Of a stretch of DNA of 64,000 bases, positions 1 to 64,000 are shown piece after piece. Where the stretch lies: the NCBI GenBank assembly GCA_963785325.1, contig CAWAVC010000025.1:202051-266050 (forward strand), read 5' to 3'. Positions within the stretch are counted from its first letter, which is position 1; the number at the start of each line of letters is the position of its first letter. This stretch comes from an uncultured Bacteroidales bacterium. Lineage in GTDB: Bacteria > Bacteroidota > Bacteroidia > Bacteroidales > FEN-979. A program made the position numbers and the translations under genes. The notes under the pieces were generated by a model, which saw only the letters and a list, made by a program, of their open reading frames with translations, had not been told where the DNA came from and made no database searches.

Positions 1-216
1 AATGAAAATAAAAATATAAAACATTGCGTCAAGTAAAGATAGAACTATAGAACAGAGGTCGATATCCAGTCACGATAAGGAATTTTATTTTTTATTTCCT
101 AAGGAATATTGATCAACGATTTTTGAAGTCAGAGCGAAATTCAGAATGTCAAGATGGCAAGATAGTAAAATGGTAAAATGGTAAAATTAAGTTCAGCTAT
201 TTAAGTGGCTAAGACT

Positions 217-1179
217 CTATTCCTTGATCCATTTCCCGGTCTCAATAATCCTGTCGTTAAAAACGATTCGCCAGACATAGGTCCCTGAAGGCAGAGATTT
301 CGTCTCCAATGTTGTTCTTCTTTTATCGAGTGTTTTAGCAATTACCTGTTTCCCTTCAATGGAAGTCATCATGAATTGTGCTCTTGAAATTTGCGGACCT
401 GATTCAATGATCAGGTAATCTGAACCGGGGTTGGGAAAAACAATGGCATCGTGAACCGATGGGTCTGTTTTGTTATCGTTTACACCGACCAATCCGTTGT
501 GATCCACTTTAATTACATAGACATCTCTTTCATTAACCTGTGTTACAGAATCATAAATAGATCCAAACAACAGACAACCACCGTCTTTTGTAGCTCTGAT
601 ACCCATTAATACATAATACGCATTACCCCCATAGAATTTTTCCCATCTGACATTTAGTAAAGAATCCATATTGGTAAGTGAGAACCAACTAATTTGGTTA
701 CAAATTTCATATTGGCAAAAGTTATGTGTGCCACCAATATATATGTTATTTGTATCAATATAATCAAGATTCTTCCATTTACCTGGCCATTCAATAGTGT
801 CATGATCACCTATATAAAGTTCATGATTAAGGGAGTAACTCGTATCAAGTGAAAAAACACCGATACAACGATCGTTAGGAAATGGTATGGAATCCTTTCT
901 CCCGGTGAGGATAAATGTTTTTTTATTAATCCATTTGGAATTTAATGTTTCTGAAAGTTCATGAGGCACACCAGTAACATTTACGATTGAAAATGAATTG
1001 TCAAGATCGAGAATTGCTTCATTATAATTTGCCCACATAGAATGATATCCGGTAAGGAACAAGGTTGAATTTGTTTTAACATTGAATCGTTTCCTCAACT
1101 TAGCCATCATCTTGGCAATTGCAGATTCAGTAATGAGTATTTTCTCCGCAATTTGTTGCAAATTCATATCTTGTAACAT
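217..1179 (-). CDS. T9SS C-terminal sorting-domain protein with an N-terminal LuxR/GerE-type HTH remnant (chimeric or decayed gene)
   Basis: C-terminus VFPNPGSDYLIIES...GTYVWRIVFNDRIIETGKWIKE resembles a Por_Secre_tail sorting domain. The N-terminus (KPREKEILSL)MLQDMNLQQIAEKILITESAIAKMMAKLRKRF is a GerE-type HTH whose first helix lies upstream of the only ATG. No signal peptide. Confidence 0.5.
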   Translation of the reverse strand: MLQDMNLQQIAEKILITESAIAKMMAKLRKRFNVKTNSTLFLTGYHSMWANYNEAILDLDNSFSIVNVTGVPHELSETLNSKWINKKTFILTGRKDSIPFPNDRCIGVFSLDTSYSLNHELYIGDHDTIEWPGKWKNLDYIDTNNIYIGGTHNFCQYEICNQISWFSLTNMDSLLNVRWEKFYGGNAYYVLMGIRATKDGGCLLFGSIYDSVTQVNERDVYVIKVDHNGLVGVNDNKTDPSVHDAIVFPNPGSDYLIIESGPQISRAQFMMTSIEGKQVIAKTLDKRRTTLETKSLPSGTYVWRIVFNDRIIETGKWIKE

Positions 1180-1288
1180 GAGCGAAAGGATTTCTTTCTC
1201 CCTTGGTTTAAGAAAGGGCTCATTTTTATTTGAATAAAAGGCTATTACTTTTCCTTTTCTGACCGATTAATCGGGAAATGCCAGGGGG

Positions 1289-2125
1289 ATGGTTATAAAC
1301 CGGACTATTTTATGTTTCGTTTTCTTTGTTTCCAATTGTGTTTATGCTGCCGGAGATTACAAAGCCACAGGTGGCAGGGCTGCTGCTTTGGGCTATACGT
1401 CAGTAAGGCAATCGGATGAATGGTCGGTGTTCAACAATCAGGCCGGATTGGCATGGTGCAAACAGTTCAGTACCGGTATCTATTTCGAGAATCGTTTCTT
1501 TTTAGAAGATCTTAGCGGGAAAGCCCTGGCTTTAACGCTTCCGGTTGGTAAAGGCGCCTTTGGCGTTTCCTTTTTTCAGTTTGGGTTTTCCCTGTATTCC
1601 GAGATGAATACCGGTATTGCTTACGGAATGCATCTGACGAAAAGGTTTTCCGCCGGAGTACAGGCAGATTACCTGCGCCTGCATGTGGCCGACGGTTTTA
1701 AAGATAACAGTGTTTTTTCCTGTGGGATCGGGTTGCAATTCAGGGCCAGTGACCACCTTTGGCTCGGATTGCATATTGCTAACCCTGTTCCGGTAAAACT
1801 CTCTCCTTTGGCTAATGACAGACTTCCTACCCTTATGAGATTCGGGATAAGCTGGAGAATCTCTGAAGTACTGCACTGCGATGCCGAGGTGGAAAAGGAT
1901 CTTATTCTTAAACCGTCATTGAAGGCAGGAATTGAATATTGTCCGATAAAATCATTTTCCATCCGTATGGGATTTCTTTCTAATCCGGCAACGTTCACTT
2001 TTGGATTTGGACTTGCGATCGGGAACCTGCAGTTTGACCTGGCGTCATCGTATAATTTGATACTGGGTTATTCACCTCAGGCGTCGATGGTTTATTATTT
2101 CGGAAAGGTCAAAGCGGGAAAGTGA
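1289..2125 (+). CDS. outer-membrane beta-barrel protein (FadL/PorV/PorQ-like signature)
   Basis: Hydrophobic N-terminus ending VYA. GGRAAALGYTSV...FNNQAGLA motif. Alternating beta-strand pattern throughout. Confidence 0.45.
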   Translation: MVINRTILCFVFFVSNCVYAAGDYKATGGRAAALGYTSVRQSDEWSVFNNQAGLAWCKQFSTGIYFENRFFLEDLSGKALALTLPVGKGAFGVSFFQFGFSLYSEMNTGIAYGMHLTKRFSAGVQADYLRLHVADGFKDNSVFSCGIGLQFRASDHLWLGLHIANPVPVKLSPLANDRLPTLMRFGISWRISEVLHCDAEVEKDLILKPSLKAGIEYCPIKSFSIRMGFLSNPATFTFGFGLAIGNLQFDLASSYNLILGYSPQASMVYYFGKVKAGK

Positions 2126-2130
2126 GTCAA

Positions 2131-2733
2131 GTTGGGTGTTGGGTGTTGGGTGTTGGGAATCAGGCACTGGGTACTGGGCACTGGGTACTGGGTACTGGGT
2201 ACTAGGTACTGGGTACTAGGTACTGGGTACTGGGTACTGGGCACTGGGTACTAGGTACTGGGTACTGGGTACTGGGTACTGGGTACTGGGCACTGGGTAC
2301 TAGGTACTGGGTACTGGGTACTGGGTACTGGGTACTGGGTACTGGGTACTGGGTACTGGGTACTGGGTACTGGGTACTGGGTACTGGGTACTGGGTACTG
2401 GGTACTGGATACTGGGTACTGGGTACTGGATACTGGGTACTGGGTACTGGGTACTGGGTGCTGGGTACTGGGTACTGGGTACTGGGTGCTGGGTACTGGG
2501 TACTGGGTGCTGGGTACTGGGTACTGGGTACTGGGTGCTGGGTACTGGGTGCTGGGTACTGGGTACTGGGTACTGGGTACTAGGTACTGGGTACTGGGTG
2601 CTGGGTACTGGGTACTGGGTGCTGGGTACTGGGTACTGGGTACTGGGTGCTGGGTACTGGGTACTAGGTACTGGGTACTGGGTACTGGGTACTGGCTACT
2701 GGGTGCTGGGTACTAGGAACTGGATACTGGATA
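2131..2733 (+). repeat. heptamer tandem array, about 85 units of GGGTACT (variants GGGCACT, AGGTACT, GGGTGCT, GGATACT; begins with 3x GTTGGGT)
   Basis: Direct reading. The array starts 6 nt after the stop of the preceding ORF. It is open in all six frames, which produces the artefactual ORFs at 2486-2753. Confidence 0.97.
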
Positions 2734-2821
2734 TTAGCTATTTTCCAATATAGAGAGGGAGGAGAGGTGATACAAAAAATATTTTTATATGTAGTTATTG
2801 TTTGAATTAGTAAAAAAGCCT

Positions 2822-7977: not shown

Positions 7978-8088
7978 AAAATGAAGAATGAAGAATGAAG
8001 AATGAAAAATGAAGGATGGAGTATAAAGAATGAAGAATGAAGAATGAAAAATGAAGAATGAAAAATGAAGGATGGTGGATTGAATGAC
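7978..8088 (+). repeat. heptamer array GAATGAA (with GGATGGA variants)
   Basis: Direct reading. Starts at the stop codon of the preceding gene. Confidence 0.9.
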
Positions 8089-10361: not shown

Positions 10362-10380
10362 GCCGTGACGTAAAGTTTGT

Positions 10381-10435
10381 GAATAGTGAGAAGTGAGAAG
10401 TGAGAAGTGAGAGGAAATAGATGAGAGTTGAAGGA
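10381..10435 (+). repeat. heptamer array AGTGAGA/GGTGAGA
   Basis: Direct reading. Confidence 0.85.
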
Positions 10436-17180: not shown

Positions 17181-17197
17181 TCGTATCTTTGCAGATT

Positions 17198-50468: not shown

Positions 50469-50700
50469 ACATTTTAGATTAACGATTACAATGTCCTTAT
50501 AATATTCCCGTTAATGTTATGAAATATTAATATTTGGATTTCTGCATTGTTTTTTTATTTCTTACTTTTGAAATCGTGACGCGAAACAATGACCCACCCC
50601 CTGCCCCTCCCCCAAGAGGGAGGGAGAGATGAAGGGAGAATATTGCGACGCGAATATCGAAATTCGTAATTTCAATTGTTATTCGTAATTCGTAATTTTT
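50440..50700. repeat. MITE-like palindromic element with AATTACG-array arms and a central C/G hairpin
   Basis: AATTACGAATTACGAA at 50452-50467 is perfectly complementary to 50682-50697. The centre carries CCCCTCCCCCAAGAGGGAGGGA (about 50604-50625). No ORF. Confidence 0.6.
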
Positions 50701-52245: not shown

Positions 52246-52834
52246 ATGCAAATATTTACTGCGAGGTTTGTTTCGAGTAGTCCTTCACTGAAACTTTGTC
52301 CGATAGGCAATCTTCCGGAATTTGCTTTTATCGGGCGGTCGAACGTCGGGAAGTCTTCTTTGATCAATATGATCACCGGGAGCAGAGCCCTGGCAAAAGT
52401 ATCGGGCACTCCAGGGAAAACGCGGCTGATCAATCATTTTCTCATCAATGAGTCGTGGTATATGGTCGACCTTCCGGGATTCGGGTTTGCAAGGATATCC
52501 AAAGAAGAGAGCCGTAAGATAAGAATCATGATCGAGAGTTACCTGCTTCACCGTGATAGCCTTCGCCTTACCTTCTTACTCATCGATTCCCGCCACCTGC
52601 CACAAAAGAATGATCTTGAATTTATGGCCTGGCTTACGCGTAAACATATCCCCTTCGTCATCCTCTTCACCAAGGCCGACAAGATCACTAAAGCCCACCA
52701 TACAGATAATCCTTACCAGTACCGGAAAGCCCTCATCGAAATGCTGAAATATAGACCCTGAGTTTATTCTGACGTCAGCGGAAAAGAAGATGGGGGGAGA
52801 AGAAGTACTTAAGGTTGTTGAGAGGGAGAAGTAG
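52246..52834 (+). pseudogene. engB: ribosome-biogenesis GTPase EngB/YihA with a frameshifted C-terminus (or a sequencing error)
   Basis: G1 [18 protein letters not shown] and TKADK motifs. After ...EMLKY the conserved tail DPEFILTSAEKKMGGEEVLKVV continues in another frame. The junction is at 52748-52756. Confidence 0.8.
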
Positions 52835-52936
52835 TGAGAGGTGAGAAGTGAGAAGTGAATAGTGAATGGTGAGTGGTGAATGGAGAGCGGACGGGTGAAC
52901 AAGCGAACGAGCGGACGGGAGAAAATCGTGAATATT
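52834..52936 (+). repeat. mosaic array GGTGAGA, AGTGAAT, GAGCGGAC-type units
   Basis: Direct reading. Confidence 0.9.
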
Positions 52937-53015: not shown

Positions 53016-53535
53016 ATGGAGAACTTGCAGCATTGGTATGCCGTTTACACGAAACCCAGGAGTGAAAAGAAATTAGCCGAACGGTTGAGCGATCAGGGTA
53101 TCGAGGCCTATCTTCCCATGCGCAAAACCCTGAAACAATGGTCGGACCGGAAGAAGATGGTTAGTGAGCCGCTGATTTCTTCTTATGTTTTCGTTAATAT
53201 TTTCCAGAAAGATTATCTTGAAGTACTCAAGAAATGCCCGAAGCGCGTGAGGTATATGTGGTTCTGCGGCAAGCCTGCTGTTATTCCTTCAAACCGAGAT
53301 CCAGTCATTGAAGCTTATCATAAAACCAGGACCTTGATATCCAACGTGTTTCGTCATCTTTTCCCACAAGGTACCCGTGTGCAGGTGGTCTCGGTCATTT
53401 GAAGGGACTTACGGCGAACTGCTGAACCATGCCGGGAAACATAGAGTCATGATCAGGCTCGATAATCTGGATAAGGCGCTACTGCTGACGATTTCACCAC
53501 GGCTGTTGGAGGAAGTGAATGTGAGTAGTGAATAG
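53016..53535 (+). pseudogene. UpxY-family (NusG-like) transcription antiterminator, disrupted by at least one and probably three frameshifts
   Basis: The NGN domain WYAVYTKPRSEKKLAERL...SYVFV is intact. EIQSLKLIIKPG, FPQGTRVQVVS and FEGTYGELLNHAGKHRVMIRL (KOW region) lie in alternating frames between 53294 and 53400. Confidence 0.7.
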
Positions 53536-53592
53536 TGAGAGGTGAGAGGTGAGAGGTGAGAGGTGAGAGGTGAGAGGTGAGAGGTGAGAAGG
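53515..53592 (+). repeat. heptamer array AGTGAAT, then GGTGAGA x8
   Basis: Direct reading. Confidence 0.95.
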
Positions 53593-53816
53593 TAATTACT
53601 CATTTTTGTGTGCTAAGTTTTGGTATTTTCAGAGATGGGACTGGACAGGGCGAAGCTGTAAATGGTGAAAAGTGAGAGGTGAGAGGTGAGTGAGGGTGTG
53701 GGTGAGTGGAAAATGGTTAGTAGTGAATGTGGTCATGGAGAGTGGAGAATGAAATTTCAATAAAAAATCAAGATTATTTTGTATTTTTGAAAACATGTTA
53801 CAATAAATCACCTGGT

Positions 53817-54020: not shown

Positions 54021-54139
54021 TGTTTCAACTGGTCTACACCAATAGATTCAAAAAAGACATAAAACTTCTTCAGAAAAGAGGCTTTGACCTGAACTTGCTA
54101 AAAATCGTCATCTCCATTCTGGAAGAAAATAGTGAGTAG
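54020..54139 (+). pseudogene. YafQ/RelE-type toxin remnant (first ~37 codons only), cut off by the repeat arm of cassette A
   Basis: MFQLVYTNRFKKDIKLLQKRGFDLNLLKIVISILEEN matches the N-terminus of YafQ-type toxins (about 90 aa expected). The ORF then runs into AGTGAGT units and a TAG. Confidence 0.55.
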
Positions 54140-54161
54140 TGAGTGGTGAATAGTGAATGGT
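54131..54161 (+). repeat. 5' arm of cassette A (AGTGAGT, GGTGAAT, AGTGAAT)
   Basis: GTGGTGAATAGTGAATGGT at 54143-54161 is the perfect reverse complement of 54579-54597. Confidence 0.95.
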
Positions 54162-54177
54162 AAAAAAATGAATTTTC

Positions 54178-54524
54178 ATGGATCATAAAGATCTGGAGGT
54201 TTGGAAAGAATCAATGCTTCTTGCAAAGGAGGTATATTTTTTGACAAAAGGGTTTCCCAAAGAAGAAATATATGGGATTACCTCCCAAATCAGAAGAGCA
54301 TCGGTATCAGTTCCATCAAATATCGCTGAAGGCGCTGCAAGAAGTAGCGATAAAGAATTCATTCAATTTCTTTATATTTCCCTTGGTTCTCTCTCTGAAT
54401 TGGAAACTCAATTATTGTTATCCCGGGATTTGGAATTCATGAGGAATCCAGATATCTTACCAAAAATCGAATCGACAAAAAGAAAATTTTAGGTCTGATC
54501 AAATATCTGAAAAACAAAATTTAG
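54178..54524 (+). pseudogene. four-helix-bundle protein (23S rRNA IVS protein / Avd-like), copy A, with a 1-nt indel in an A-run near the 3' end (or a sequencing error)
   Basis: About 85% aa identity to copies B and C. After ...IESTK the tail KKILGLIKYLKNKI continues in another frame. The junction is at 54478-54490. Confidence 0.8.
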
Positions 54525-54548
54525 AAATAATGTAGTCGAATTCCCGCA

Positions 54549-54597
54549 CCCACACACACTACTAACTATTCACCTCTCACCATTCACTATTCACCAC
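54549..54597 (-). repeat. 3' arm of cassette A (inverted GGTGAAT/GGTGAGA units)
   Basis: See the 5' arm: 19-bp perfect complementarity. Confidence 0.95.
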
Positions 54598-55134
54598 TTG
54601 TTAGATACCCTTATCACAAGCAAGACGCGGATTAAGCTGCTGCTGAGGTTTTTCCTGAACAGCAACACTACTTCTTATCTGCGAAACCTGGAGACGGATT
54701 TCGACGAATCTACCAACTCCATCAGGATCGAGCTGAACAGGTTTGAGAAAGCCGGTTTGCTGGTTTCCGGGAAAGAACAGAACCGGAAGGTTTATAAGGC
54801 CAATACCAACCATCCCCTATTTCCCGATATCAACAATATCCTGAGGAAGTACATCGGGGTCGATCAGATCATCGATAAGGTGCTCGGACACCTGGGATCT
54901 GTAAATAAGGCATATATCACGGGTGATCTTGCGAGAGGAAAGGACGCCGACAGCATCAACCTCTACCTCATCGGCACTGAACTCGATCTCGACTACCTCA
55001 AACATCTCATAAAGAAGACTCAAACGCTGATACACCGCGGTATCAAGTATAAACTGCTGGACGAAGGGGAAGAAGCGGAATTTCTCAAAGAGAATCCAGA
55101 TGCATTTGTTATTTGGAAGGGGAATGGTGAATAG
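54598..55134 (+). CDS. winged-helix transcriptional regulator with a C-terminal nucleotidyltransferase-like domain
   Basis: MLDTLITSKTRIKLLLRFFLN...YLRNLE...IRIELNRFEKAGLL (ArsR-like wHTH). The TTG start directly abuts the repeat arm. Confidence 0.55.
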   Translation: MLDTLITSKTRIKLLLRFFLNSNTTSYLRNLETDFDESTNSIRIELNRFEKAGLLVSGKEQNRKVYKANTNHPLFPDINNILRKYIGVDQIIDKVLGHLGSVNKAYITGDLARGKDADSINLYLIGTELDLDYLKHLIKKTQTLIHRGIKYKLLDEGEEAEFLKENPDAFVIWKGNGE

Positions 55135-55238
55135 TGAATGGTGAGAGGTGAGAGGAGAAAAAGTGAGAGGTGAGAGGTGAGAGGAAAAAAAGTGAGAGGT
55201 GAGAGGTGAGAAGACGTGAGATGTGAGAAGTGAGAAGT
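55122..55238 (+). repeat. 5' arm of cassette B (GGTGAAT, then GGTGAGA blocks, GATGTGA, AGTGAGA)
   Basis: GTGAGAGGTGAGAGGTGAGA at 55192-55211 is complementary to part of 55628-55655. Confidence 0.95.
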
Positions 55239-55255
55239 AAAAAAAAAAGAATTTT

Positions 55256-55609
55256 ATGAATCATAAAGAGTTGGAGGTTTGGAAAGAGTCAATGATTCTT
55301 GCAAGGGAAGCTTACCTTTTGACTAAAGGTTTTCCTAAGGAAGAATTGTATGGAATTACTTCACAGATAAGAAGAGCATCGGTTTCTATACCATCAAATA
55401 TTGCAGAAGGTGCTGCACGAAGCAGTGATAAAGAATTCATTCAATTTCTATATATATCTCTGGGGTCACTCTCTGAACTTGAAACCCAATTCTTATTATC
55501 AAAAGATTTGAAATTTATTGAAAACCTTGAGGTTTTACATAAAATCGAATCGATAAAAATGAAACTTCTCGGCTTGATAAAATACCTGAAAAACAAAAAG
55601 AAAAAATAA
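55256..55609 (+). CDS. four-helix-bundle protein (23S rRNA IVS protein / Avd-like), copy B
   Basis: LEVWKESMILAREAY...SQIRRASVSIPSNIAEGAARSSDKEFIQFLYISLGSLSELETQ, 117 aa. Confidence 0.85.
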   Translation: MNHKELEVWKESMILAREAYLLTKGFPKEELYGITSQIRRASVSIPSNIAEGAARSSDKEFIQFLYISLGSLSELETQFLLSKDLKFIENLEVLHKIESIKMKLLGLIKYLKNKKKK

Positions 55610-55627
55610 CATCATACCTGTATTTAC

Positions 55628-55655
55628 ATCTCACCTCTCACCTCTCACCTCTCAC
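55628..55655 (-). repeat. 3' arm of cassette B (inverted GGTGAGA x4), followed by an AAACTTA array to 55710
   Basis: Direct reading. Confidence 0.95.
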
Positions 55656-55710
55656 AGCTTAACACTTAAAACTTAAAACTTAAAACTAATAACACTTAAA
55701 ACTAATACTT

Positions 55711-56413
55711 TTGAAAGCAGTAATTCTGGCGGGGGGTAAGGGAACGAGGTTGAAACCTTATACTACCGTTATTCCGAAGCCATTGGTGCCGGTTGGGGAG
55801 ACTTCGATTATCGAGATCCTGATCAGGCAACTTAAAAAGTCGGGAATTGAAGAGGTGGATGTGTGCCTGGGCCACTTTGCCGAAATCATCATGGCCTTCC
55901 TCGGAGATGGCAGCAAATGGGGAATAAAGATCAGGTATTCCGTTGAAACAAAGCTTATGGGGACAGTTGCTCCTCATTAAACTGCTCAGCGACCTGCCTG
56001 AGAATTTCCTGGTCATGAATGGCGATCTGCTGACAAATCTTGACTTTATGAATTTGTATGCTACCCATCTTAATAATGATTCATTGCTGACCGTTTCAAC
56101 GTATCAGCGGACGACAAAAATTGATTTTGGCGTTATCGAAACTGAAGGACAATCTGAGAAAGTTACCGGTTTTAAAGAAAAACCTGAATATAACTTCGAA
56201 GTCAGCATGGGGGTTTATGTGATGAACAGGAAGATCCTTGACTTTGTTCCCGATGACCAGCCTTTTGGGTTTGACGACCTGATGATCACACTGATTCAGA
56301 AGAAACAACCTATCTCAATCTACCGCTTCAATGGTTATTGGCTCGATATCGGGAGGCCGGATGATTATGAGAAGGCGAATGAGGATGTGGGAAAGGTGAG
56401 AGGTGAGAGGTGA
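55711..56413 (+). pseudogene. sugar-phosphate nucleotidyltransferase, split by a 1-nt indel (or a sequencing error)
   Basis: ILAGGKGTRLKPYT..IPKPLVPV in ORF1 and LVMNGDLLTN...WLDIGRPDDY in ORF2. The junction is at 55969-55977. TTG start. The stop lies inside a GGTGAGA unit. Confidence 0.8.
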
Positions 56414-56417
56414 GAAG
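56394..56417 (+). repeat. 5' arm of cassette C (GGTGAGA x3)
   Basis: Direct reading. Confidence 0.9.
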
Positions 56418-56434
56418 AAAAAAAATAAAAAAGT

Positions 56435-56788
56435 ATGAATCATAAAGATTTGGAAGTTTGGAAGGAATCGATGCTTCTTGCAAAGGAAGTATATCTTGTG
56501 ACAAAAGGTTTTCCTAAGGAAGAATTGTATGGAATTACTTCACAGATAAGAAGAGCATCGGTTTCTGTACCATCAAATATTGCAGAAGGCGCTGCACGAA
56601 GCAGTGATAAAGAGTTTATTCAATTTCTATATATCTCTCTTGGTTCCCTTTCTGAACTTGAAACCCAATTATTATTATCCCGGGATTTGAAATTTATTGA
56701 AAATCTGGATTTTTTACCAAAAATCGAATCGGTAAAAATGAAACTTATCGGCTTGATAAAATATCTTAAAAACAAAATGAAAAAATAA
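56435..56788 (+). CDS. four-helix-bundle protein (23S rRNA IVS protein / Avd-like), copy C
   Basis: 117 aa, about 90% identical to copy B. The nucleotide tract 56507-56566 is identical to 55328-55387. Confidence 0.85.
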   Translation: MNHKDLEVWKESMLLAKEVYLVTKGFPKEELYGITSQIRRASVSVPSNIAEGAARSSDKEFIQFLYISLGSLSELETQLLLSRDLKFIENLDFLPKIESVKMKLIGLIKYLKNKMKK

Positions 56789-56806
56789 CATCATAGTTGC
56801 ACTTAC

Positions 56807-56834
56807 ATCTCACCTCTCACTTCTCACTTCTCAC
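56807..56834 (-). repeat. 3' arm of cassette C (inverted GGTGAGA/AGTGAGA units)
   Basis: Direct reading. At least 13 bp is perfectly complementary to the 5' arm. Confidence 0.9.
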
Positions 56835-56844
56835 AATTTAAAAC

Positions 56845-57916
56845 TTGAAGATCGTAACGGTTATCGGGGCAAGGCCGCAGTTTATTAAGGCGGCGACTTA
56901 TGTCACGGTTACTTTGCATGTATCCTGATGTTGAAGAGATCCTCGTGCATACAGGGCAGCATTATGATCCGAATATGTCGGATATCTTTTTCGAGGAGCT
57001 GGATATTCCGCATCCTGATTTTAACCTGGAGGTCGGCTCAGGTTCTCACGCTGTTCAGACCGGTAAAATGCTCAGGGGTATAGAGACTATCCTTATGGAT
57101 AAAAAACCAGATTGGACACTGGTGTACGGTGATACAAATTCGACCCTTGCCGGTGCGCTTGCTTCCACGAAACTCAATATCCCCGTGGCTCATGTTGAGG
57201 CAGGGCTTCGATCCTTTAACCGGAAGATGCCTGAAGAGATCAACCGGATCGTGACAGACCATATTTCCGACCTCCTCTTCGCCCCTACCCCCACGGCTAT
57301 GGTCAACCTTGAAAAGGAAGGGCTGCTCGGATCAAGCTTCCAAACCGGAGATGTGATGTTCGATAGTACGCTATTTTACAAAGAGAAAATACTCAGGAAT
57401 CCTGACACGTATAAGACTAATGGACTTCCGGATAAATACCTGCTGGCTACGGTGCATCGTGCCGAAAATACCGATAACATCAATAACCTGAGAAACATTT
57501 TCAAGGCATTCTCTGAATCCCGGGAGACCATTGTGTTGCCCATCCATCCACGAACCCGGAAAAGCATCGCCAATATCATTCAGATTCCTGAAAATGTTCA
57601 CCTCATCGATCCCGTCGGATACCTTCAGATGCTTTATCTGACGATACATTCAGTCAAAGTCCTTACTGATTCAGGAGGCTTGCAGAAAGAGGCTTATTTT
57701 CTTGGTAAACAATGTATTACCCTGCGTACGGAAACGGAATGGCTGGAGACAGTTCACGATAATTGGAATATCGTTACAGGAACAGACCCGGATAAGATTC
57801 TGGGGGCTATACGGTCGGAAGTTCCTGATAAGCCTCAACATTCATCGTTTGGAGATGGACATGCGGCGGAGGCGATCGTTGAGAAGATAAAATGGGTACT
57901 GGGTACTGGGTACTAG
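56845..57916 (+). pseudogene. wecB: UDP-N-acetylglucosamine 2-epimerase with a frameshift after codon ~17 (or a sequencing error)
   Basis: (TTG)KIVTVIGARPQFIKAAT lies in one frame and SRLLCMYPDVEEILVHTGQHYDPNMS... in the next. There is one extra nt at 56896-56902 relative to the paralogous fragment at 62984. The tail WVLGTGY and the stop lie in a GGGTACT array. Confidence 0.8.
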
Positions 57917-58158
57917 GTACTGGGTACTGGGTACTGGGTACTAGGTACTGGGTACTGGGTACTGGGTACTGGGTACTAGGTACTGCAGACAAAGCGACGT
58001 GGTGAACTGGTGACAGAGTGATGTGGTGAACTGGTGAGAAGTGAATGGTGAGAGGTGAATAGTGAGTGGTGAATAGTGAGTGGTGAATAGTGAATGGTGA
58101 ATGGGAAAAAGTAATAAAGTGACAAAGTAACAAAGTAACAAAGTAACAGAGTAACAAA
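57894..58158 (+). repeat. mosaic array: GGGTACT x about 12, GGTGAACT/GGTGACAG, GGTGAAT/AGTGAGT, AAGTAACA octamers
   Basis: Direct reading. Confidence 0.95.
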
Positions 58159-58172: not shown

Positions 58173-59291
58173 ATGAACCCATTCAGTTACGGATCTATAG
58201 TCAGGGGGCCATATTTTTACGACAGAGTTCCGGAATGTAAGCGTATTGTTTCAACTTTATCAGGGGGAAACAATTTAGTGTTATTTGCACCCCGCCGTTA
58301 TGGAAAGACCTCTCTTGTTTTTCGAGTTATTGAGGAATTGGAAAAGATGGATTACACCTGCATCTATTTCGATTTTATGCCTGTTTATTCAAGAGAGTCA
58401 TTTATCGAAGCTTACTCAAAAGCCATTCTCGCAAAGCAAAGCAATCTTCAGCGTGCTGTTAAATCCATGGCCATCTGGGTAAAAGGCATCCGCACTAAAA
58501 TAGCATTTAACCAATCCGGAACCCCTGAATTCTCAATAGATTTTACAGACGATATCCTGACTGAAAAAACATTGGAAGATATTGTTGATTTACCCGAAAA
58601 ACTTGCTTCGGAAAGGAAACGATTTGTCATAATTTTTGATGAGTTTCAGGAAATAAATAAGTTGAATGGTGAGAATTTCGAAAAATTATTGCGCAGTAAG
58701 ATACAGCAGCAGCAATATATAACTTACATGTTTCTGGGAAGCCGTACCCATTTACTCAGTGATATGTTCAATAATAAGGCACGTTCGTTTTACAATGCTG
58801 CAATGTTGATGCAGTTGGACACTTTGCCTGAAAATGAAACCATCAGTTTTTTGAAAAACAGATTTGCCTTGTCAAATATTACCATTGATGAAGCTACGGC
58901 TATATTCCTTATTAAGCAAGCAGGAAATATTCCTTACTATATACAACTATTAGCTGCCGAAGTATGGCAAAATCTGGTATCATCATCTAAGAATTTAAAC
59001 ACAACTATTATTGCAGATTGTGCTGAGGGTATTGTTGATTTGAAAAGCGATTTTTACTTTGAGCTTTATGACAGGCAATCATCCTATCAGAAAAAATTAT
59101 TAAAATCTCTTCTGATCAGCGGTGAAAATGTATTTTCAGCAGATTATACAAAACGATTTCGTTTATCCGCCACATCGACAACTCAAAAAGCGTTACTGGG
59201 GTTGATAGAAACAGGTATCATTGAGAAATTGGGAGGTACATATTTTATTAGTGATCCATTTTTCAAACGATTTCTTTCACGTTACGCCTGA
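58173..59291 (+). CDS. AAA-type ATPase (archaeal-ATPase/DUF234-like)
   Basis: FYDRVPECKRI..., Walker A APRRYGKTSL and Walker B VIIFDEFQE. Confidence 0.65.
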   Translation: MNPFSYGSIVRGPYFYDRVPECKRIVSTLSGGNNLVLFAPRRYGKTSLVFRVIEELEKMDYTCIYFDFMPVYSRESFIEAYSKAILAKQSNLQRAVKSMAIWVKGIRTKIAFNQSGTPEFSIDFTDDILTEKTLEDIVDLPEKLASERKRFVIIFDEFQEINKLNGENFEKLLRSKIQQQQYITYMFLGSRTHLLSDMFNNKARSFYNAAMLMQLDTLPENETISFLKNRFALSNITIDEATAIFLIKQAGNIPYYIQLLAAEVWQNLVSSSKNLNTTIIADCAEGIVDLKSDFYFELYDRQSSYQKKLLKSLLISGENVFSADYTKRFRLSATSTTQKALLGLIETGIIEKLGGTYFISDPFFKRFLSRYA

Positions 59292-59317
59292 TGGCGTTAC
59301 GCCAAAAAGCGTAAAAA

Positions 59318-60665
59318 CAGGCGGACGAAAAAAAGTCACAAAGTGATAGAGTGATAGAGTGACAAAGTAAAAAAGCGGACAAGCGGACAAGCGGACGGAC
59401 GAGGTGGTGAGAAGTGAGAGGTGAGAAGTGAATGAAAAATTAATAAAAAGTCACAGAATTCACAAAGTAAAAAAGCGGACAAGCGGACAAGCGGACAAGC
59501 GGACGGACGAGGTGGTGAGAAGTGAGAGGTGAGAAGTGAATGAAAAATTAATAAAAAGTCACAGAATTCACAAAGTAAAAAAGCGGACAGGTGAACAAGC
59601 GGACAAGCGGACAAGCGGACAAGCGGACAAGCGGACGGACGAGGTGGTGAGAAGTGAGAGGTGAGAAGTGAATGAAAAATTAATAAAAAGTCACAGAATT
59701 CACAAAGTAAAAAAGCGGACAGGTGAACAAGCGGACAAGCGGACAAGCGGACAAGCGGACAAGCGGACGGGCGAGGTGGTGAGAAGTGAGAGGTGAGAAG
59801 TGAATGAAAAATTAATAAAAAGTCACAGAATTCACAAAGTAAAAAAGCGGACAGGTGAACAAGCGGACAAGCGGACAAGCGGACAAGCGGACGGGCGAGG
59901 TGGTGAGAAGTGAGAGGTGAGAAGTGAATGAAAAATTAATAAAAAGTCACAGAATTCACAAAGTAAAAAAGCGGACAGGTGAACAAGCGGACAAGCGGAC
60001 AAGCGGACAAGCGGACAAGCGGACAAGCGGACGGGCGAGGTGGTGAGAAGTGAGAGGTGAGAAGTGAATGAAAAATTAATAAAAAGTCACAGAATTCACA
60101 AAGTAAAAAAGCGGACAAGCGGACAAGCGGACAAGCGGACGGACGAGGTGGTGAGAAGTGAGAGGTGAGAAGTGAATGAAAAATTAATAAAAAGTCACAG
60201 AATTCACAAAGTAAAAAAGCGGACAGGTGAACAAGCGGACAAGCGGACAAGCGGACAAGCGGACGGGCGAGGTGGTGAGAAGTGAGAGGTGAGAAGTGAA
60301 TGAAAAATTAATAAAAAGTCACAGAATTCACAAAGTAAAAAAGCGGACAGGTGAACAAGCGGACAAGCGGACAAGCGGACAAGCGGACAAGCGGACAAGC
60401 GGACAAGCGGACAAGCGGACGGACGAGGTGGTGAGAAGTGAGAGGTGAGAAGTGAATGAAAAATTAATAAAAAGTCACAGAATTCACAAAGTAAAAAAGC
60501 GGACAAGCGGACAAGCGGACAAGCGGACAAGCGGACAAGCGGACGGGCGAGGTGGTGAGAAGTGAGAGGTGAGAAGTGAATGAAAAATTAATAAAAAGTC
60601 ACAGAATTCACAAAGTCAGAGTCACAAAGTAAAAAAGTGACAAAGTAAGGAAGTGAGAACCTTGA
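59318..60665 (+). repeat. higher-order repeat: 10 composite units of about 108-157 bp
   Basis: Each unit has (CAAGCGGA)n with n about 3-8, with or without GGTGAAC, followed by a constant module CG(A/G)GCGAGGTGGTGAGAAGTGAGAGGTGAGAAGTGAATGAAAAATTAATAAAAAGTCACAGAATTCACAAAGTAAAAAAGCGGA. The constant module was counted 10 times. Confidence 0.95.
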
Positions 60666-60689
60666 GCTTGAAACCTTGAATTATAGAAG

Positions 60690-61544
60690 ATGAATACCCA
60701 TGTAGACATAGGTGAAATAATCTTATATCAGCCGGACGATAAATCCACACAACTTGAAGTCCGCATAGATGAAGAAACTGTATGGTTATCGCAAAGCCAA
60801 ATGGTTGAGCTTTTCAGTTCTACAAAGCAAAATGTAAGTTTGCATATTAGCAATATTTTTAAGGAAAATGAATTAGACCCAACTTCAACTGTCAAGGAAT
60901 ACTTGACAGTTCAATTGGAAGGAACAAGAAGGGTAAAGCGAAAGATGACCGTTTATAATCTTGACGTCATCATATCTGTAGGATATCGGGTTAAATCTCG
61001 GCGTGGTACGCAGTTTCGGATTTGGGCTAACCAGGTACTGAAAAATTATTTACTGAAGGGATATGTTCTGAATCAGCGTGTCGACAGGATTGAAAAAAAG
61101 CTGTTGGATCATGATCAAAAATTTGACTTAATGATAAAGACCAACCTGCTGCCAAACGAAGGGATTTTTTATGACGGGCAGATTTTTGATGCGTACCAGT
61201 TTGCATCGGATTTAATCAAATCTGCTAGCAAATCCATTGTGCTGATTGACAACTACGTGGATGAAAGCGTATTGACATTACTTTCGAAAAGAGCCACTGG
61301 AGTGACAGCTATGATATACACAGCCTCAGTTTCAAAACAACTGGCACTGGATCTGAAACGCTTTAATGCCCAATACCCGGTAATTAATGTGAAAACTTTT
61401 ACCAGATCGCACGACCGTTTCCTGATCATTGACAATTCTGCAATTTATCACATTGGGGCTTCATTAAAGGATCTTGGAAAGAAATGGTTTGCCTTTTCCA
61501 AAATCAAGTTTGATGCAATGGAGATGATTAAAAAATTGAAGTGA
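60690..61544 (+). CDS. RhuM-family protein (virulence-RhuM N-domain plus a C-terminal HxD/PLD-like segment)
   Basis: EVRIDEETVWLSQSQMVELF...NLDVIISVGYRVKSRRGTQFRIWANQVLK. C-terminal SHDRFLIIDN..IYHIGASLKDLGKK. Confidence 0.65.
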   Translation: MNTHVDIGEIILYQPDDKSTQLEVRIDEETVWLSQSQMVELFSSTKQNVSLHISNIFKENELDPTSTVKEYLTVQLEGTRRVKRKMTVYNLDVIISVGYRVKSRRGTQFRIWANQVLKNYLLKGYVLNQRVDRIEKKLLDHDQKFDLMIKTNLLPNEGIFYDGQIFDAYQFASDLIKSASKSIVLIDNYVDESVLTLLSKRATGVTAMIYTASVSKQLALDLKRFNAQYPVINVKTFTRSHDRFLIIDNSAIYHIGASLKDLGKKWFAFSKIKFDAMEMIKKLK

Positions 61545-61730
61545 AAGTCATAAAGTCAAGAAGTCACAAAGTAACAAAGTGACAAAGTGATAAACGGACA
61601 AGCGGACAGGAGAAAATCGTGACGCGGAAATCGTGGGAAGTGAGAGGTGAGAGGTGAGAGGTGAAAAAGTGAGAAGTGAGAGGTGAGAGGTGAGAAGTGA
61701 GTGGTGAGAAGTGAGTGGTGAGATGTGAAA
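61545..61730 (+). repeat. mosaic array: AAGTCA(C/T)A octamers, CAAGCGGA, AATCGTGACGCGG, GGTGAGA/AGTGAGA
   Basis: Direct reading. Confidence 0.9.
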
Positions 61731-61848
61731 AAGGCTTTTCGGAGCAAGTTCAAGTTTTAGGTGTATTGTTGTATATTTGTACTAAAGTATAAAATTATAG
61801 CTATCGGATATTTGATAGATCTTCAGGATGAGATAATACTAAACAAAA

Positions 61849-62268
61849 TTGGCACTTCAAACAATTGACATTCCTAATCTGACTAAAATCCTGGAACAAC
61901 AGTTTCAAGAGATTTTATTTGCTTTTATTTTCGGTTCTGCGAAAGATGGATTAATCAGAACAGAGGGAGATGTCGATATTGCCGTGTGGATAGACGACCC
62001 CAAAAAAAAGATGGATTTGATACCGCGGTTAACAGGAATAGTGGAGTCAATAACTCAAGGCACACCGTGTGATCTTCTACTGCTTAATGAAGCCGGCAGC
62101 CAATTGGCCTTTGAAGCGCTTCAGGGGCAGCTCCTTTTTGTAAGGGATGAAGCGATGGACCTCTATTCAGGGTTTTATGCACAGACTTGCAGGGGGTATG
62201 AAGATGCTATAGGCTGGATGAAAAAACAACTTCAATACCGTGGATATGAAGTACAATGGGATCATTGA
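61849..62268 (+). CDS. MNT-type minimal nucleotidyltransferase (type VII antitoxin candidate)
   Basis: FIFGSAKDG...GDVDIAVW nucleotidyltransferase motif. TTG start. Overlaps the next ORF. Confidence 0.7.
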   Translation: MALQTIDIPNLTKILEQQFQEILFAFIFGSAKDGLIRTEGDVDIAVWIDDPKKKMDLIPRLTGIVESITQGTPCDLLLLNEAGSQLAFEALQGQLLFVRDEAMDLYSGFYAQTCRGYEDAIGWMKKQLQYRGYEVQWDH

Positions 62269-62650
62269 ATCGAAACTAAGAATTATCGAGCAGAAATTGG
62301 GAGAGATTGAAAGCTGGAATATTCAATCATTTGAACAGCTTAAAGAAAGTTCGTTATTGCAAAATGCCCTGGAAAGAGCCCTCCAGGTGAATATCGAAGT
62401 AATGATCGATATCAGCGAACGTATCCTTGCATTAAACAAGGAACGGCCGCTCCCCACAGCGCAGGATAATATCATCAGATTACAGGAGTCAGGAATTATA
62501 TCCACAAGGCCTGAATATAGTGAAATGGTAAAATTCAGAAACTTTATTGTACACCGGTACGAAAAAATTGACCTTGAAATTATTTATGGTATCCTGAAAA
62601 ATAAACTTTTCCTATTCAGGGAATTCATTAATGATATCAGAAAGAGTTGA
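62240..62650 (+). CDS. HepT/DUF86 HEPN-domain toxin candidate
   Basis: RNFIVHRY (the R-x4-H HEPN motif) near the C-terminus, about 130 aa. Confidence 0.7.
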   Translation: MDMKYNGIIESKLRIIEQKLGEIESWNIQSFEQLKESSLLQNALERALQVNIEVMIDISERILALNKERPLPTAQDNIIRLQESGIISTRPEYSEMVKFRNFIVHRYEKIDLEIIYGILKNKLFLFREFINDIRKS

Positions 62651-62689
62651 AGGGTTTGAAGTTTGGATTTCGGATATAGACATCTTGAA

Positions 62690-62955
62690 AAAGTCACAAA
62701 GTCACAAAGTCACAAAGTCGCAGAGTAAAAGGCGGACAGGTGAACAAGCGGACAAGCGGACGAAAAAGGTCACAAAGTGACAGAGTGACAGAGTGACAAA
62801 GTAAAAAAGCGGACAAGCGGACAAGCGGATAAGCGGACGAAAAAAATCACAAAGTCACAGAGTAAAAGGCGGACAGGTGAACAAGCGGACAAGCGGACGA
62901 AAAAGGTCACAAAGTGACAGAGTGATAGAGTGACAAAGTCACAAAGTAAAAAAGG
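62690..62955 (+). repeat. second higher-order repeat (two units of about 120 bp built from AAGTCACA/AGTGACAG octamers and CAAGCGGA)
   Basis: GTAAAAGGCGGACAGGTGAACAAGCGGACAAGCGGACGAAAAAGGTCACAAAGTGACAGAGTGA occurs twice. Confidence 0.9.
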
Positions 62956-62983
62956 GAAAAAAACAGTAAACAGTACTTAACAC

Positions 62984-63318
62984 TTGAAGATTGTAACGGT
63001 TATCGGGGCAAGGGGGCAGTTTATTAAGGCGGCAACTATATCACGGTTACGAATTCATGATTCTGATGTTGAAGAAATATTGGCCCATACCGGGCAGCAG
63101 TATGATCCGAATATGCTGGATATCTTTTTCGAGGAATTGAATATCCCACATCCTGATTTTAATCTGGGGGTGGTTCAGGTTCTCATGCTATTCAGACCGG
63201 TAAAATGCTAAAGGGCATAGAGACTATCCTCCTGGATAAAAAACCAGACTGGACACTGGTGTATGGCGATACAAATTCGACGCTTGGCGGAGCAGTTGCT
63301 TCCATGAATTTAAACTAA
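62984..63318 (+). pseudogene. 5' fragment (about 105 codons) of a second UDP-GlcNAc 2-epimerase gene, frameshifted and truncated
   Basis: MKIVTVIGARGQFIKAAT...HTGQQYDPNM. There is a frameshift at the G-run 63166-63170, then SGSHAIQTGKMLKGIETILLDKKPDWTLVYGDTNSTL..., ending MNLN*. By eye it is roughly 80-90% identical to 56845-57185. Confidence 0.8.
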
Positions 63319-63333
63319 TTTAATTAACATCTT

Positions 63334-64000
63334 ATGAAAGTCCTAATCCTTGCAGGTGGTGTTGGTTCCAGATTATCTGAAGAAACACTGGTTAAACCTA
63401 AACCAATGATTGAAATAGGAGGCAAACCTATTCTTTGGCATATAATGAAACTATATTCTTTTTATGGCCACGATGATTTTATAATATTGTGCGGCTATAA
63501 AAGCTATTTAATTAAAGAATATTTTGCAAACTATTATTTTCATGAGGCGGATCTGACTGTTGACCTAAAAAATAATGCTATTAATGTTCATCATTCGAAT
63601 GCTGAGCCCTGGCAAATAACAATGGTAGATACTGGATTGGATACAATGACCGGAGGAAGAATTAAACGGGTATCAGATTACATTGGGAAGGAGACTTTTC
63701 TCCTGACCTATGGAGACGGCGTTGGGAATGTCAACATCGGGGAACTAATTGCGTTTCATAAACAACATAATAAAAAAGCGACTGTCACGATTGTTCAGCC
63801 ATCAGGAAGATTTGGAACTATAAACTTTGATGATAAAGAGGAGGTTACGGTCTTTTCATTCCAAGAAAAACCTGCTGGAGACGGTTCTTGGATAAATGGC
63901 GGTTTTTTTGTTTGTGAACCTGATGTCTTGAATTACATAAGAGATGACCAAACAATTTGGGAAAAAGAGCCGCTTGAACATTTAGCGAAAGAAAAAGAAT
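63334..64000 (+). CDS. rfbF: glucose-1-phosphate cytidylyltransferase (partial, runs off the window)
   Basis: My own translation gives MKVLILAGGVGSRLSEETLVKPKPMIEIGGKPILWHIMKLYSFYG...LLTYGDGVGNVNI...WINGGFFV. This ORF is not in the supplied track because no stop codon is reached. Confidence 0.8.
   Translation, partial: MKVLILAGGVGSRLSEETLVKPKPMIEIGGKPILWHIMKLYSFYGHDDFIILCGYKSYLIKEYFANYYFHEADLTVDLKNNAINVHHSNAEPWQITMVDTGLDTMTGGRIKRVSDYIGKETFLLTYGDGVGNVNIGELIAFHKQHNKKATVTIVQPSGRFGTINFDDKEEVTVFSFQEKPAGDGSWINGGFFVCEPDVLNYIRDDQTIWEKEPLEHLAKEKE

Follow-up and report, generated by a model that had tools for sequence, protein, structure and literature searches.

The 64,000-nt stretch analyzed here, hereafter the window (positions 202,051 to 266,050 of contig CAWAVC010000025.1, assembly GCA_963785325.1), comes from an uncultured Bacteroidales bacterium; type IX secretion system (T9SS) sorting domains, a PorV-family protein, AFOR, PFOR, and homologs named from Bacteroidales or Bacteroidota indicate a Bacteroidota anaerobe. 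Between its genes lie tandem arrays of 7- and 8-nt units, and four genes of the S23p family (PF05635/TIGR02436; E-values 7e-26 to 1.5e-37) each have a G-rich array on the 5' side and the reverse complement of that array on the 3' side. The density and the length of the arrays are what is unusual in the window; the placement of S23p genes between inverted heptamer arrays, which appears to be general across the lineages examined, is put forward as a lead that may be new.

Tandem arrays concentrated in the intergenic DNA

Tandem Repeats Finder (TRF) returned 165 rows for the whole window, which merge into about 80 short-period arrays totaling 6.4 kb (~7 kb with a higher-order block described below); 71 arrays, amounting to 5.7 kb, score at least 40. 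Rows of period 7 or 8 cover 4,962 bp, as against 55 bp on average and at most 124 bp in 20 second-order Markov simulations of the window, which produced no array with a score of 50 or more; the observed array DNA is about 90 times the chance expectation. It is longer than composition predicts, the property by which long simple sequence repeats (LSSRs; units of 5–11 nt) are recognized.

The 7-nt units comprise GGGTACT and its variants, GGTGAGA/AGTGAGA/GGTGAGT, GGTGAAT/AGTGAAT, GAATGAA, GCGTGAC, AATTACG, and AAGTGTT; further units are AAGCGGAC, AAGTCACA/AAGTGACA/AAGTAACA, and GGTGAACT. A first-pass annotation, made from the sequence without database searches, had put the arrays at about 10% of the window, listed their units as a small shared vocabulary, and described mosaics of several families at 30999–31290 and 57894–58158. 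TRF recovers the share, the units, and both mosaics, the second from 57893 onward, and the vocabulary is indeed small: 19 clusters accommodate the 42 canonical units, and five of these clusters are dominant, led by a GTGA-type cluster (24 sites) and a GGGTACT-type cluster (12 sites) and followed by AAGCGGAC, GAATGAA, and AAGTSACA. The longest arrays lie at 2131–2730, 17197–17814, 36729–37214, 38232–38615, and 51704–52253.

Measured against a gene map built from open reading frames (ORFs) and Pfam matches, arrays account for 41% of the 14.2 kb of intergenic DNA versus 1.0% of the 49.8 kb of genic DNA, and the genic overlap mostly consists of the last few codons of ORFs or of over-long mechanical ORF starts. 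Arrays are present in 34 of 45 gaps, and in 31 of the 37 gaps of at least 100 bp; in two gaps (36727–37216 and 38231–38616) they reach to 1–2 nt from the flanking genes on both sides. Behind + strand genes, arrays begin 0–5 nt past many stop codons and usually leave 60–380 nt to the next start. Stop codons lie within arrays at the five places given as examples in the first-pass annotation (13972, 20390, 31017, 56413, and 57916) and at three more (46853, 55134, and 61544). At the SpoU C-terminus the array supplies the last codons and the stop, and the protein has 185 aa in the window versus 178 aa in two relatives introduced below (L122 and L124).

Short heptamer-like arrays also occur within coding sequence: at 21051–21090 in the MoCF domain of a MOSC protein, at 27739–27771 near the MutS1 C-terminus, and at 16049–16087 in an ABC permease gene, 27 nt from the gene end.

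S23p genes lie between inverted arrays

S23p, a four-helix-bundle protein, is known as the protein of the 23S rRNA intervening sequence (IVS) and is a relative of Avd, an accessory protein of diversity-generating retroelements. The closest solved structure to the window S23p proteins is 2GSC, XCC0516 of Xanthomonas campestris. The four cassettes are the following.

44590–45242, + strand: S23p cassette 1; 5' arm (GGGTACT)n at 44590–44706, gene at 44766–45140, 3' arm (AGTACCC)n at 45164–45242
54128–54598, + strand: S23p cassette 2; 5' arm of AGTGAAT/GGTGAAT at 54128–54161, gene at 54178–54492, 3' arm of ATTCACC at 54568–54598
55122–55707, + strand: S23p cassette 3; 5' arm (GGTGAGA)n at 55122–55236, gene at 55256–55609, 3' arm (TCTCACC)n at 55629–55655
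56388–56835, + strand: S23p cassette 4; 5' arm (GGTGAGA)n at 56394–56415, gene at 56435–56788, 3' arm (TCTCACY)n at 56808–56834

The arms of cassette 1 are 95% complementary over 59 nt (44637–44695 with 45184–45242), with irregular units mirrored as well; those of cassettes 2 and 3 are fully complementary over 20 nt (54142–54161 with 54579–54598) and 22 nt (55163–55184 with 55634–55655), and those of cassette 4 are 82% complementary over 33 nt (56388–56420 with 56803–56835). As RNA, cassette 1 is predicted to form a stem of ~70 bp around its ORF (z = −14), and a stem is likewise predicted around the ORF of cassette 3 (z = −6.4), whose 3' arm is followed by six copies of CTTAAAA. The gene of cassette 2 is frameshifted at its C-terminus, and the 5' arm of cassette 4 doubles as the stop codon source for the upstream NTP-transferase gene. 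Three of the nine reverse-oriented arrays with a score of at least 40 are 3' arms of S23p cassettes; the 3' arm of cassette 2 falls below that threshold. Cassette 1 is absent from the orthologous MutS2–carboxyltransferase gap of L122 and L124. No S23p remnants were found elsewhere in the window by tblastn, and the idea that orphan arrays are decayed S23p cassettes was rejected on this result.

The 3' arm of cassette 2 (54570–54596) and the 5' arm of cassette 3 (55125–55151) are in turn fully complementary over 27 nt, and the gene between them (54598–55134), which had no family match, therefore also lies within a potential stem, of opposite polarity.

By analogy, these stem-loops would have the architecture of the RNase III-excised 23S rRNA IVS, here placed between protein genes. 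The IVS of Coxiella has a 28-bp inverted-repeat stem that RNase III cleaves; its loop carries an S23p ORF, and upstream of this ORF lie two to three tandem heptamers (GACAGAT), whose copy number varies among strains (PMC4990558). The window cassettes resemble the IVSs of Coxiella and Leptospira in having terminal inverted repeats that make a stem, with a PF05635 ORF in its loop; unlike these, they have stems made of long heptamer arrays and sit between protein-coding genes rather than in helix 25/45 of 23S rRNA, and no rRNA is present in the window. In a literature that is incompletely searchable, no general link between PF05635 and heptamer arrays was found beyond the mention of the Coxiella IVS (PMC4990558).

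The same architecture in other genomes

Relatives of the window S23p proteins are encoded at 80 metagenomic loci. Flanking inverted repeats with a score of at least 30 were found at 37 of 74 of these S23p genes versus 10 of 344 control ORFs (Fisher 2e-23), and inverted similarity between the flanks was much greater than direct similarity (41 vs. 7 of 78; Wilcoxon 3e-9). The arms are G-rich on the 5' side in 43 of 44 cases and visibly periodic at 7–8 nt, and TRF arrays make up 12.9% of the 300-nt S23p flanks versus 1.8% of the DNA farther away. At 18 of 40 loci the arm units are also found in orphan arrays elsewhere on the contig; between loci such sharing amounts to 7%.

Across 72,556 plasmids, members of the S23p family come almost exclusively from cyanobacteria, Riemerella, and Gemmatirosa, and heptamer-array arms are present at all eight plasmid loci that were retrieved (Calothrix, Nostoc, Pseudanabaena, Stanieria, Aulosira, Picosynechococcus, Riemerella, and Gemmatirosa), with GGGTGTA, GGGAGTA, AAAAGCC, AGGAGTC, GGTTYAA, GGAGGGC, and others as units. 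Among the (GGGTACT)3 loci listed in a scan described below, four of five S23p genes are armed, in Gemmatimonadales, Planctomycetaceae, and two metagenome-assembled genomes of Flavobacteriia/Flavobacteriales. Several S23p genes are wedged into operons: between cas6 and cas4 (Pseudanabaena, L213), cmr2 and cmr3 (Picosynechococcus, L216), nrdB and nrdA (Nostoc edaphicum, L212), and accB and accC (Xanthomonas, L206/L209). In X. citri the gene between accB and accC has inverted arms of GGGAATC type, the repeat described by Rehm. An operon-embedded S23p cassette looks like a selfish insertion that is tolerated by the host operon. Co-evolution of S23p clades with arm units was considered and rejected; the GGGTACT-armed S23p proteins of other phyla are no closer to window paralog 1 than to paralogs 2–4.

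Strand orientation and G-quadruplex motifs

While the first-pass description of the arrays was correct as far as it went, it missed both the reversed arrays that bracket the S23p genes and the co-orientation of the others on one strand: in the set scoring at least 40, 62 of 71 arrays, which hold 93% of array bp, have + as their G-rich strand. Those that flank the DHOdh, PFOR, and MutS2 genes, all encoded on the minus strand, keep this + orientation, so transcription does not determine the polarity; in other genomes, arrays that separate co-directional genes are split evenly between sense and antisense (53 vs. 52 and 47 vs. 44), and transcription-coupled polarity was rejected on both observations. 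Third-position GC skew is positive on the + strand whichever strand a gene is on, which weakly favors + as the leading strand, and the co-orientation is possibly linked to replication. The polar G-rich units might also be read as Chi- or KOPS-like, given the AGCGG within AAGCGGAC and the resemblance of GAACTGGTG to GCTGGTGG; we do not adopt this reading.

G-quadruplex (G4) motifs are similarly one-sided, with 21 tracts (1,740 bp) on the + strand versus 3 tracts (70 bp) on the minus strand. The GGGTACT family has one G3 tract per heptamer, while the GTGA, GAATGAA, AAGCGGAC, and AAGTCACA families have none; judged by their letters, GGGTACT arrays are canonical motifs for a predicted G-quadruplex on one strand.

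Agreement between assemblies

Several probable indel errors in window genes would be in keeping with arrays that are themselves artifacts of assembling noisy long reads, a reading that we consider barely credible. A second assembly (L119; ENA ERZ25039480) includes a 20.5-kb contig that encodes the exact window DHOdh protein and aligns to window positions 27557–47821; it is noisy within highly conserved genes and identical to the window elsewhere. Nine of the 12 arrays common to both are base-for-base identical, including the 486-bp array at 36729–37214 with 0 differences, and in a 384-bp array the sole difference is one unit at a shifted position, such that the two assemblies agree on both array length and the internal order of variant units. 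The k-mer-based Logan contig L001 (run ERR11748453) matches the window at 100% identity over 3,161 bp and breaks within arrays at both ends, since k-mer assemblers stop at tandem repeats. Arrays of the same kind are present in relatives and in many isolate genomes, including complete Nostoc chromosomes. To the extent that these sources allow a judgment, among which L119, L001, and the window assembly may not stem from independent samples, the arrays are not an assembly artifact.

Besides mutS, which is discussed below, three genes in the window are broken or altered. The carboxyltransferase gene (45307–46853, +) is split into two ORFs and is intact, at 515 aa, in relatives; a BNR/T9SS protein gene (24743–26903, −) is likewise split into two ORFs; and the second S23p copy (54178–54521, +) has its C-terminus in another frame. 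This pattern suggests residual assembly indel errors, or pseudogenization.

Relatives and array turnover

Three relatives (L120, L122, and L124, with DHOdh proteins 90%, 81%, and 82% identical to that of the window) share the gene order GNAT, acyltransferase, S20, BCCP, carboxyltransferase, MutS2, PFOR, DHOdh, SppA, TPR, SpoU, MutS. Over the syntenic 21–24 kb, arrays cover 7.9% of the window but 2.0%, 1.4%, and 0.3% of L120, L122, and L124, respectively, which amounts to 4–25 times less array DNA in genomes of the same gene order. The PFOR–DHOdh gap measures 386 bp in the window versus 128–202 bp in relatives, and the DHOdh–SppA gap 490 bp versus 5–94 bp. The first-pass annotation had asked whether relatives of the same gene order carry arrays at random positions; their few arrays are not random in position but likewise intergenic, although their units differ from those of the window. 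In L120 the vocabulary is partly shared (GGTGAA types, GCGTGAC, and GGGTATT), with unit and length differing per site, and none of the three relatives conserves particular arrays. Far less array DNA, made of other units, in relatives of the same order suggests that the arrays are young and fast-evolving; they appear to be a lineage trait, recently expanded and with fast turnover.

The long arrays have higher-order periods of 14, 21, and 49 nt, and each carries a private variant (GGGCACT, GGGTTCT, or AGGTACT). Such private variants and higher-order periods have the appearance of a signature of local amplification and homogenization. In the higher-order repeat at 59342–60656, a 70-nt core is invariant across 10 copies while the intervening AAGCGGAC arrays have 3, 4, 7, 7, 6, 8, 4, 6, 10, and 6 units; whole-unit gain and loss is therefore much faster than substitution.

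Several rearrangements relative to the relatives were also observed. The MutS2 gene (42371–44560, −) is inverted with respect to L122 and L124, where it is divergent from PFOR and co-directional with carboxyltransferase; the inverted segment is bounded by GGGTACT-type arrays, with a reverse-oriented array at 45164–45242, which hints at an array-mediated inversion. In L122 and L124 the stretch from SppA to the TPR protein holds the HPPK and deoxynucleoside kinase genes; the window lacks both and has a 494-bp gap with arrays (34196–34689) in their place, and L120 has HPPK and a transposase at this position.

Comparison with known repeat systems

The arrays of the window belong to a class of short tandemly repeated repetitive (STRR) sequences and LSSRs that is already known and widespread. 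STRR heptamers were reportedly described from heterocystous cyanobacteria by Mazel et al. in 1990, and their units are CCCCAGT (STRR1), TTGGTCA (STRR2), and CAACAGT (STRR3). No window unit is identical to any of the three; GGGTACT (equivalent to ACTGGGT) is one base from STRR1 (equivalent to ACTGGGG), and many Nostoc genomes contain exact (GGGTACT)3, so that the STRR analogy drawn in the first-pass annotation is apt. STRRs likewise form several 7-nt tandem families that are dispersed in intergenic DNA and have no established function, whereas the window differs in its Bacteroidota host, its additional 8-nt units, its up to ~86 copies, its 41% intergenic coverage, and its co-orientation. For heptamer repeat families in general, we know of no accepted origin or function. 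Eukaryotic satellite DNA is similar in its small library of units, array-private variants, higher-order periodicity, and rapid turnover; the window is unlike it in being prokaryotic, with arrays of hundreds rather than millions of bp that are interspersed between genes. REPs and REPINs are palindromic intergenic units of ~35 nt, and RAYT is a Y1 transposase whose gene is flanked by inverted REPs. As an analogy only, the window shares with REP/RAYT a dispersed short intergenic repeat and a gene flanked by inverted copies of it; however, its tandem 7–8-mers are not palindromic, S23p has no enzymatic motif, and no Y1 transposase turned up in Pfam scans of the window.

When 185,579 species genomes were scanned for exact copies of (GGGTACT)3, at least 117 stretches were found, against ~0.3 chance matches estimated from the size of the collection. 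The matches listed include Nostoc, Scytonema, Anabaena, and other cyanobacteria, Acidobacteriota, Planctomycetota, Gemmatimonadota, Bacteroidota, Chlorobiota, Vibrionaceae, Desulfobacterales, Streptomyces, and others; among them, at least 10 phyla other than Bacteroidota are represented, and those within Bacteroidota fall in other Bacteroidales, Flavobacteriales, Chitinophaga-labeled, and Lewinella genomes. Many of the 8-kb loci around these matches contain several different 7–8-nt families, at 2–7% coverage.

Previously reported hosts of the class are cyanobacteria, Xanthomonas, Beggiatoaceae, and a few Bacteroidetes (PMC4679880, PMC4692102). Arrays of TAACTGA and other heptamers, with up to 43 copies, have been described from intergenic DNA of five Bacteroidetes as well as Beggiatoaceae and cyanobacteria (MacGregor 2015, PMC4679880); together with the (GGGTACT)3 matches in other Bacteroidota, this makes the first-pass statement that the organization was undescribed for Bacteroidota too strong. 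Long TAACTGA arrays in Gramella and Aequorivita are missing from close relatives with the same gene neighborhood (PMC4679880). TAACTGA arrays lie mostly just upstream of start codons (PMC4679880), whereas window arrays are anchored at stop codons, and TAACTGA had no match in the window at up to one mismatch. The survey of LSSRs with 5–11-nt units by Mrazek et al. (2007), in the summary given by PMC4679880, found heptanucleotides to be dominant with a sporadic distribution across the phylogeny, proposed polymerase slippage as their origin, and placed Xanthomonas campestris among the richest genomes; no Bacteroidota appear among the top genomes that the summary lists. Array density in the window looks higher than in the repeat sets described in these papers, which have 2–43 units per set and come with no coverage figure. 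The GGGNATC heptamers of Xanthomonas and Nostoc are in excess in non-coding DNA, lie on the sense strand up to 50 bp from stop codons, form G4 in vitro, and are transcribed; four units are preferred, with a maximum of 26, and inverted pairs number 70–75 per Xanthomonas genome (Rehm 2015, PMC4692102). The window departs from these repeats in that its GGGTACT arrays have 5–86 units and most of its families lack a G3 tract; moreover, no link to S23p is drawn by Rehm 2015 (PMC4692102), whereas GGGAATC arms flank a Xanthomonas S23p gene here.

Origin and possible roles of the arrays

The reading we favor, with a fair share of doubt remaining, is that the arrays form a satellite of the STRR/LSSR class: driven by slippage, expanded in this lineage not long ago, bounded by coding selection, co-oriented, and co-opted or seeded by S23p stem-loops. 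Short seeds would be amplified in place by whole-unit replication slippage together with multi-unit unequal exchange, which would account for the higher-order periods of 14, 21, and 49 nt and of 124–156 nt, and each array would homogenize its own private variants. Growth would continue until halted by purifying selection on coding sequence; arrays would abut or overrun stop codons and fill gaps to 1–2 nt because only coding selection limits them. The expansion would be recent and specific to the lineage. An array paired with its own reverse complement would form a long stem, and each of the four S23p genes would lie within such a stem-loop. Most array DNA is probably non-functional individually, yet a source of structure-forming material.

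Several observations weigh against this proposal. Slippage in place does not by itself explain why the same few units recur at 12–24 separate sites, nor why exact (GGGTACT)3 is found at 117 or more places in many phyla, and some spreading or unit-selecting process is needed besides it. The one-strand orientation has no demonstrated cause, with no origin or terminus visible in the window. Finally, no array length polymorphism is seen between the two assemblies of this population, and instability is inferred from the higher-order repeat and the relatives.

This reuse of units across sites and phyla, unexplained by slippage, keeps alive a different account, in which the arrays would serve as cis-acting sites for a trans-acting system built around S23p; it is doubtful, but we take it seriously. 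By analogy, the S23p pentamer, by itself or together with an enzyme that it recruits, might bind arrays as DNA or RNA and aid their maintenance or spread. Just as tentatively, the S23p gene might travel as a stem-loop cassette, and such cassettes might seed, spread, or stabilize orphan arrays in the manner of REPIN/RAYT. That S23p genes, in each lineage examined, have on either side inverted arrays of heptamers belonging to the genome they are in fits this account, as do the sharing of arm units with orphan arrays of the same contig, the restriction of plasmid members almost entirely to cyanobacteria, Riemerella, and Gemmatirosa, and a 1.8% array content even in DNA more than 300 nt from S23p genes, compared with 0.2–0.5% in array-poor relatives. 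Likewise, S23p genes number four in the 64 kb of the window versus none in 21 kb of each array-poor relative, and the closest solved structure is from X. campestris, which is a repeat-rich species in the survey of Mrazek (2007) as summarized in PMC4679880. On the other hand, S23p is a small helical protein that lacks any catalytic motif, the window shows no linked reverse transcriptase, transposase, or nuclease, and the missing affinity between GGGTACT-armed S23p proteins of different phyla leaves no sign of protein–unit specificity. Orphan arrays in the window have no decayed S23p copies next to them, and the 93% of orphan arrays in one orientation contrasts with the mixture expected of abandoned cassette arms. 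A role for the arrays as selected elements, acting after stop codons as G4-forming terminators, insulators, or stabilizers of mRNA 3' ends, seems less probable still. It would suit the canonical G4 motifs of the GGGTACT arrays, the start of arrays in general just past many stops of + strand genes and usually well before the next start, the inverted array-tip hairpin directly after the PFOR stop codon, and the two gaps made of pure array, where any terminator must be array; GGGNATC repeats share this placement, form G4 in vitro, and are transcribed (Rehm 2015, PMC4692102). Nevertheless, families lacking a G3 tract (GGTGAGA, GAATGAA, AAGCGGAC, and AAGTCACA) are in the majority, orientation is independent of transcription here and evenly split in other genomes, arrays of 50–86 units far exceed what a G4 or terminator needs (four being the preferred number in Rehm 2015, PMC4692102), and close relatives do without an array in the same gaps.

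Expansion through lost mismatch repair, with a broken mutS leaving slipped-strand intermediates unrepaired, is a further proposal, to which we attach very little weight. The MutS1 gene (27556–30184, −) carries a 1-nt insertion near 28760 that breaks it into ORFs 28718–30184 and 27556–28809, while mutS is intact (877–889 aa) in L120, L122, and L124, all of which have far fewer arrays. The extra base is not in the second assembly L119, however; the carboxyltransferase and BNR protein genes of the window are split as well, as expected from long-read indel errors; L120 combines an intact mutS with 2% array; and loops of 7–8 nt are poor MutS substrates. Exact-protein look-ups for the mutS frameshift in other assemblies returned no match, and the split in the window reflects an error of the assembly or else a genuine lesion.

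The window illustrates how far the heptamer phenomenon can go in a bacterium, at 41% of non-coding DNA. Long-read metagenome assemblies expose such arrays, whereas short-read assemblies break on them. The association with S23p offers a candidate trans-acting partner for the repeats and a defined RNA or DNA structure to probe, and the inverted-arm signature lets annotators recognize S23p cassettes inside operons. Were a system of S23p and arrays to be real, it would explain the identical heptamers of unrelated phyla, the richness in S23p of STRR-rich cyanobacteria and Xanthomonas, and the role of a protein family that has long been an orphan.

Individual arrays and neighboring features

The remaining arrays are given below with strand and content.

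2131–2730, + strand: four GTTGGGT, then ~80 GGGTACT/GGGCACT, with higher-order periodicity of 14/21/49 nt; fills the gap between hyp278 and the HHH protein
7980–8074, + strand: GAATGAA x13.6, beginning 3 nt past the carboxylase stop
10379–10412, + strand: AGTGAGA x4, after the AFOR gene
13971–14012, + strand: GGTGAGA/GGTGAAT, including the solute-binding protein stop codon
15105–15165, + strand: GCGTGAC x2.3, then GGTGAACT/GGCGAACT x5
17197–17814, + strand: ~86 GGGTTCT/GGGTACT; fills the ABC ATPase–moeA gap from 16 nt past the stop to 4 nt before the start
19806–19876, + strand: GGGTACT/AGGTACT x10, in the moaA–moaC gap
20378–20515, + strand: GAATGAA, AAGCGGAT, GAATGAA; overlaps the moaC stop and extends to the next start codon
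30999–31290, + strand: mosaic of GGTGAGA (last SpoU codons), GGGTTCT x20, AAATGGCA, and AGTGAAT x10
34264–34311, + strand: compound 16-nt GGTGAACT/GGTGACGT array
34836–34919, + strand: GGACAAGC, AATTACG, AAGCGGAC, upstream of the likely true SppA start
36729–37214, + strand: GGGTACT x68; fills the convergent SppA–DHOdh gap to 2 nt from either stop; identical in the second assembly
38232–38615, + strand: GGGTWCT x50; fills the PFOR–DHOdh gap, both genes being on the minus strand
42261–42296, + strand: GGGTGCT/GGGTACT x5, in the PFOR–MutS2 gap
46853–46965, + strand: AATGGTG x2, then GGGTACT/GGGTGCT x13, from the carboxyltransferase stop onward
50380–50697, no strand assigned: AAGTCACA x5 and AATTACG x3, with an inverted TCGTAAT array 190–214 nt downstream
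51704–52253, + strand: GGTGAGA x70, then GGATGGA/GAATGAA; fills the gap before the EngB-like GTPase gene
52833–52917, + strand: mosaic of AGTGAGA, AGTGAAT, and GAGCGAAC
53514–53708, + strand: AGTGAAT and GGTGAGA x8, then GGTGAGA x4, 3' of the NusG-like gene
57893–58158, + strand: mosaic of GGGTACT x13 (including the epimerase stop), GGTGAACT, GGTGAAT/AGTGAG x11, and AAAGTAAC x6
59342–60656, + strand: higher-order repeat, with a 1.2-kb block at 59373–60656; ten 70-nt cores (GTGAGAA... AAGTCACA... motifs) alternating with AAGCGGAC arrays
61544–61728, + strand: AAGTCACA/AAGTGACA x5, then GGTGAGA/AGTGAGA x13, from the RhuM stop onward
62690–62975, + strand: AAGTCACA, AAGCGGAC, and ACAGAGTG arrays, 3' of the MNT/HepT pair

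The final 29 nt of the PFOR–DHOdh array (38587–38615) are inverted and form the hairpin directly 3' of the PFOR stop. The inverted pair at 50380–50697 has no S23p gene between its arms. The higher-order block at 59342–60656 had no Rfam match as a known RNA family, and its identification as a CRISPR array was rejected, as invariant 70-nt cores alternate with octamer arrays and there are no unique spacers. It lies in an island (58173–62650) that carries an ATPase_2/AAA gene, a RhuM-family gene, and the MNT/HepT toxin–antitoxin pair, and that is the region of the window richest in the 8-nt families AAGCGGAC and AAGTCACA.

Two insertion sequence (IS) elements with DDE transposases are present, at 22964–24196 and 47851–49384. 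The latter has 35-nt terminal inverted repeats (47851–47885 and 49350–49384) and splits the S20–acyltransferase gap, which is intact in relatives; a lone copy of the end motif of this element, CCCCCAAGAGGGAGGG, is present near 50600, flanked by the inverted AATTACG arrays. Repeats of 123 and 141 nt at 25350–26756 (−) are coding repeats of a BNR/Ycf48-like T9SS-secreted protein and stand outside the satellite.

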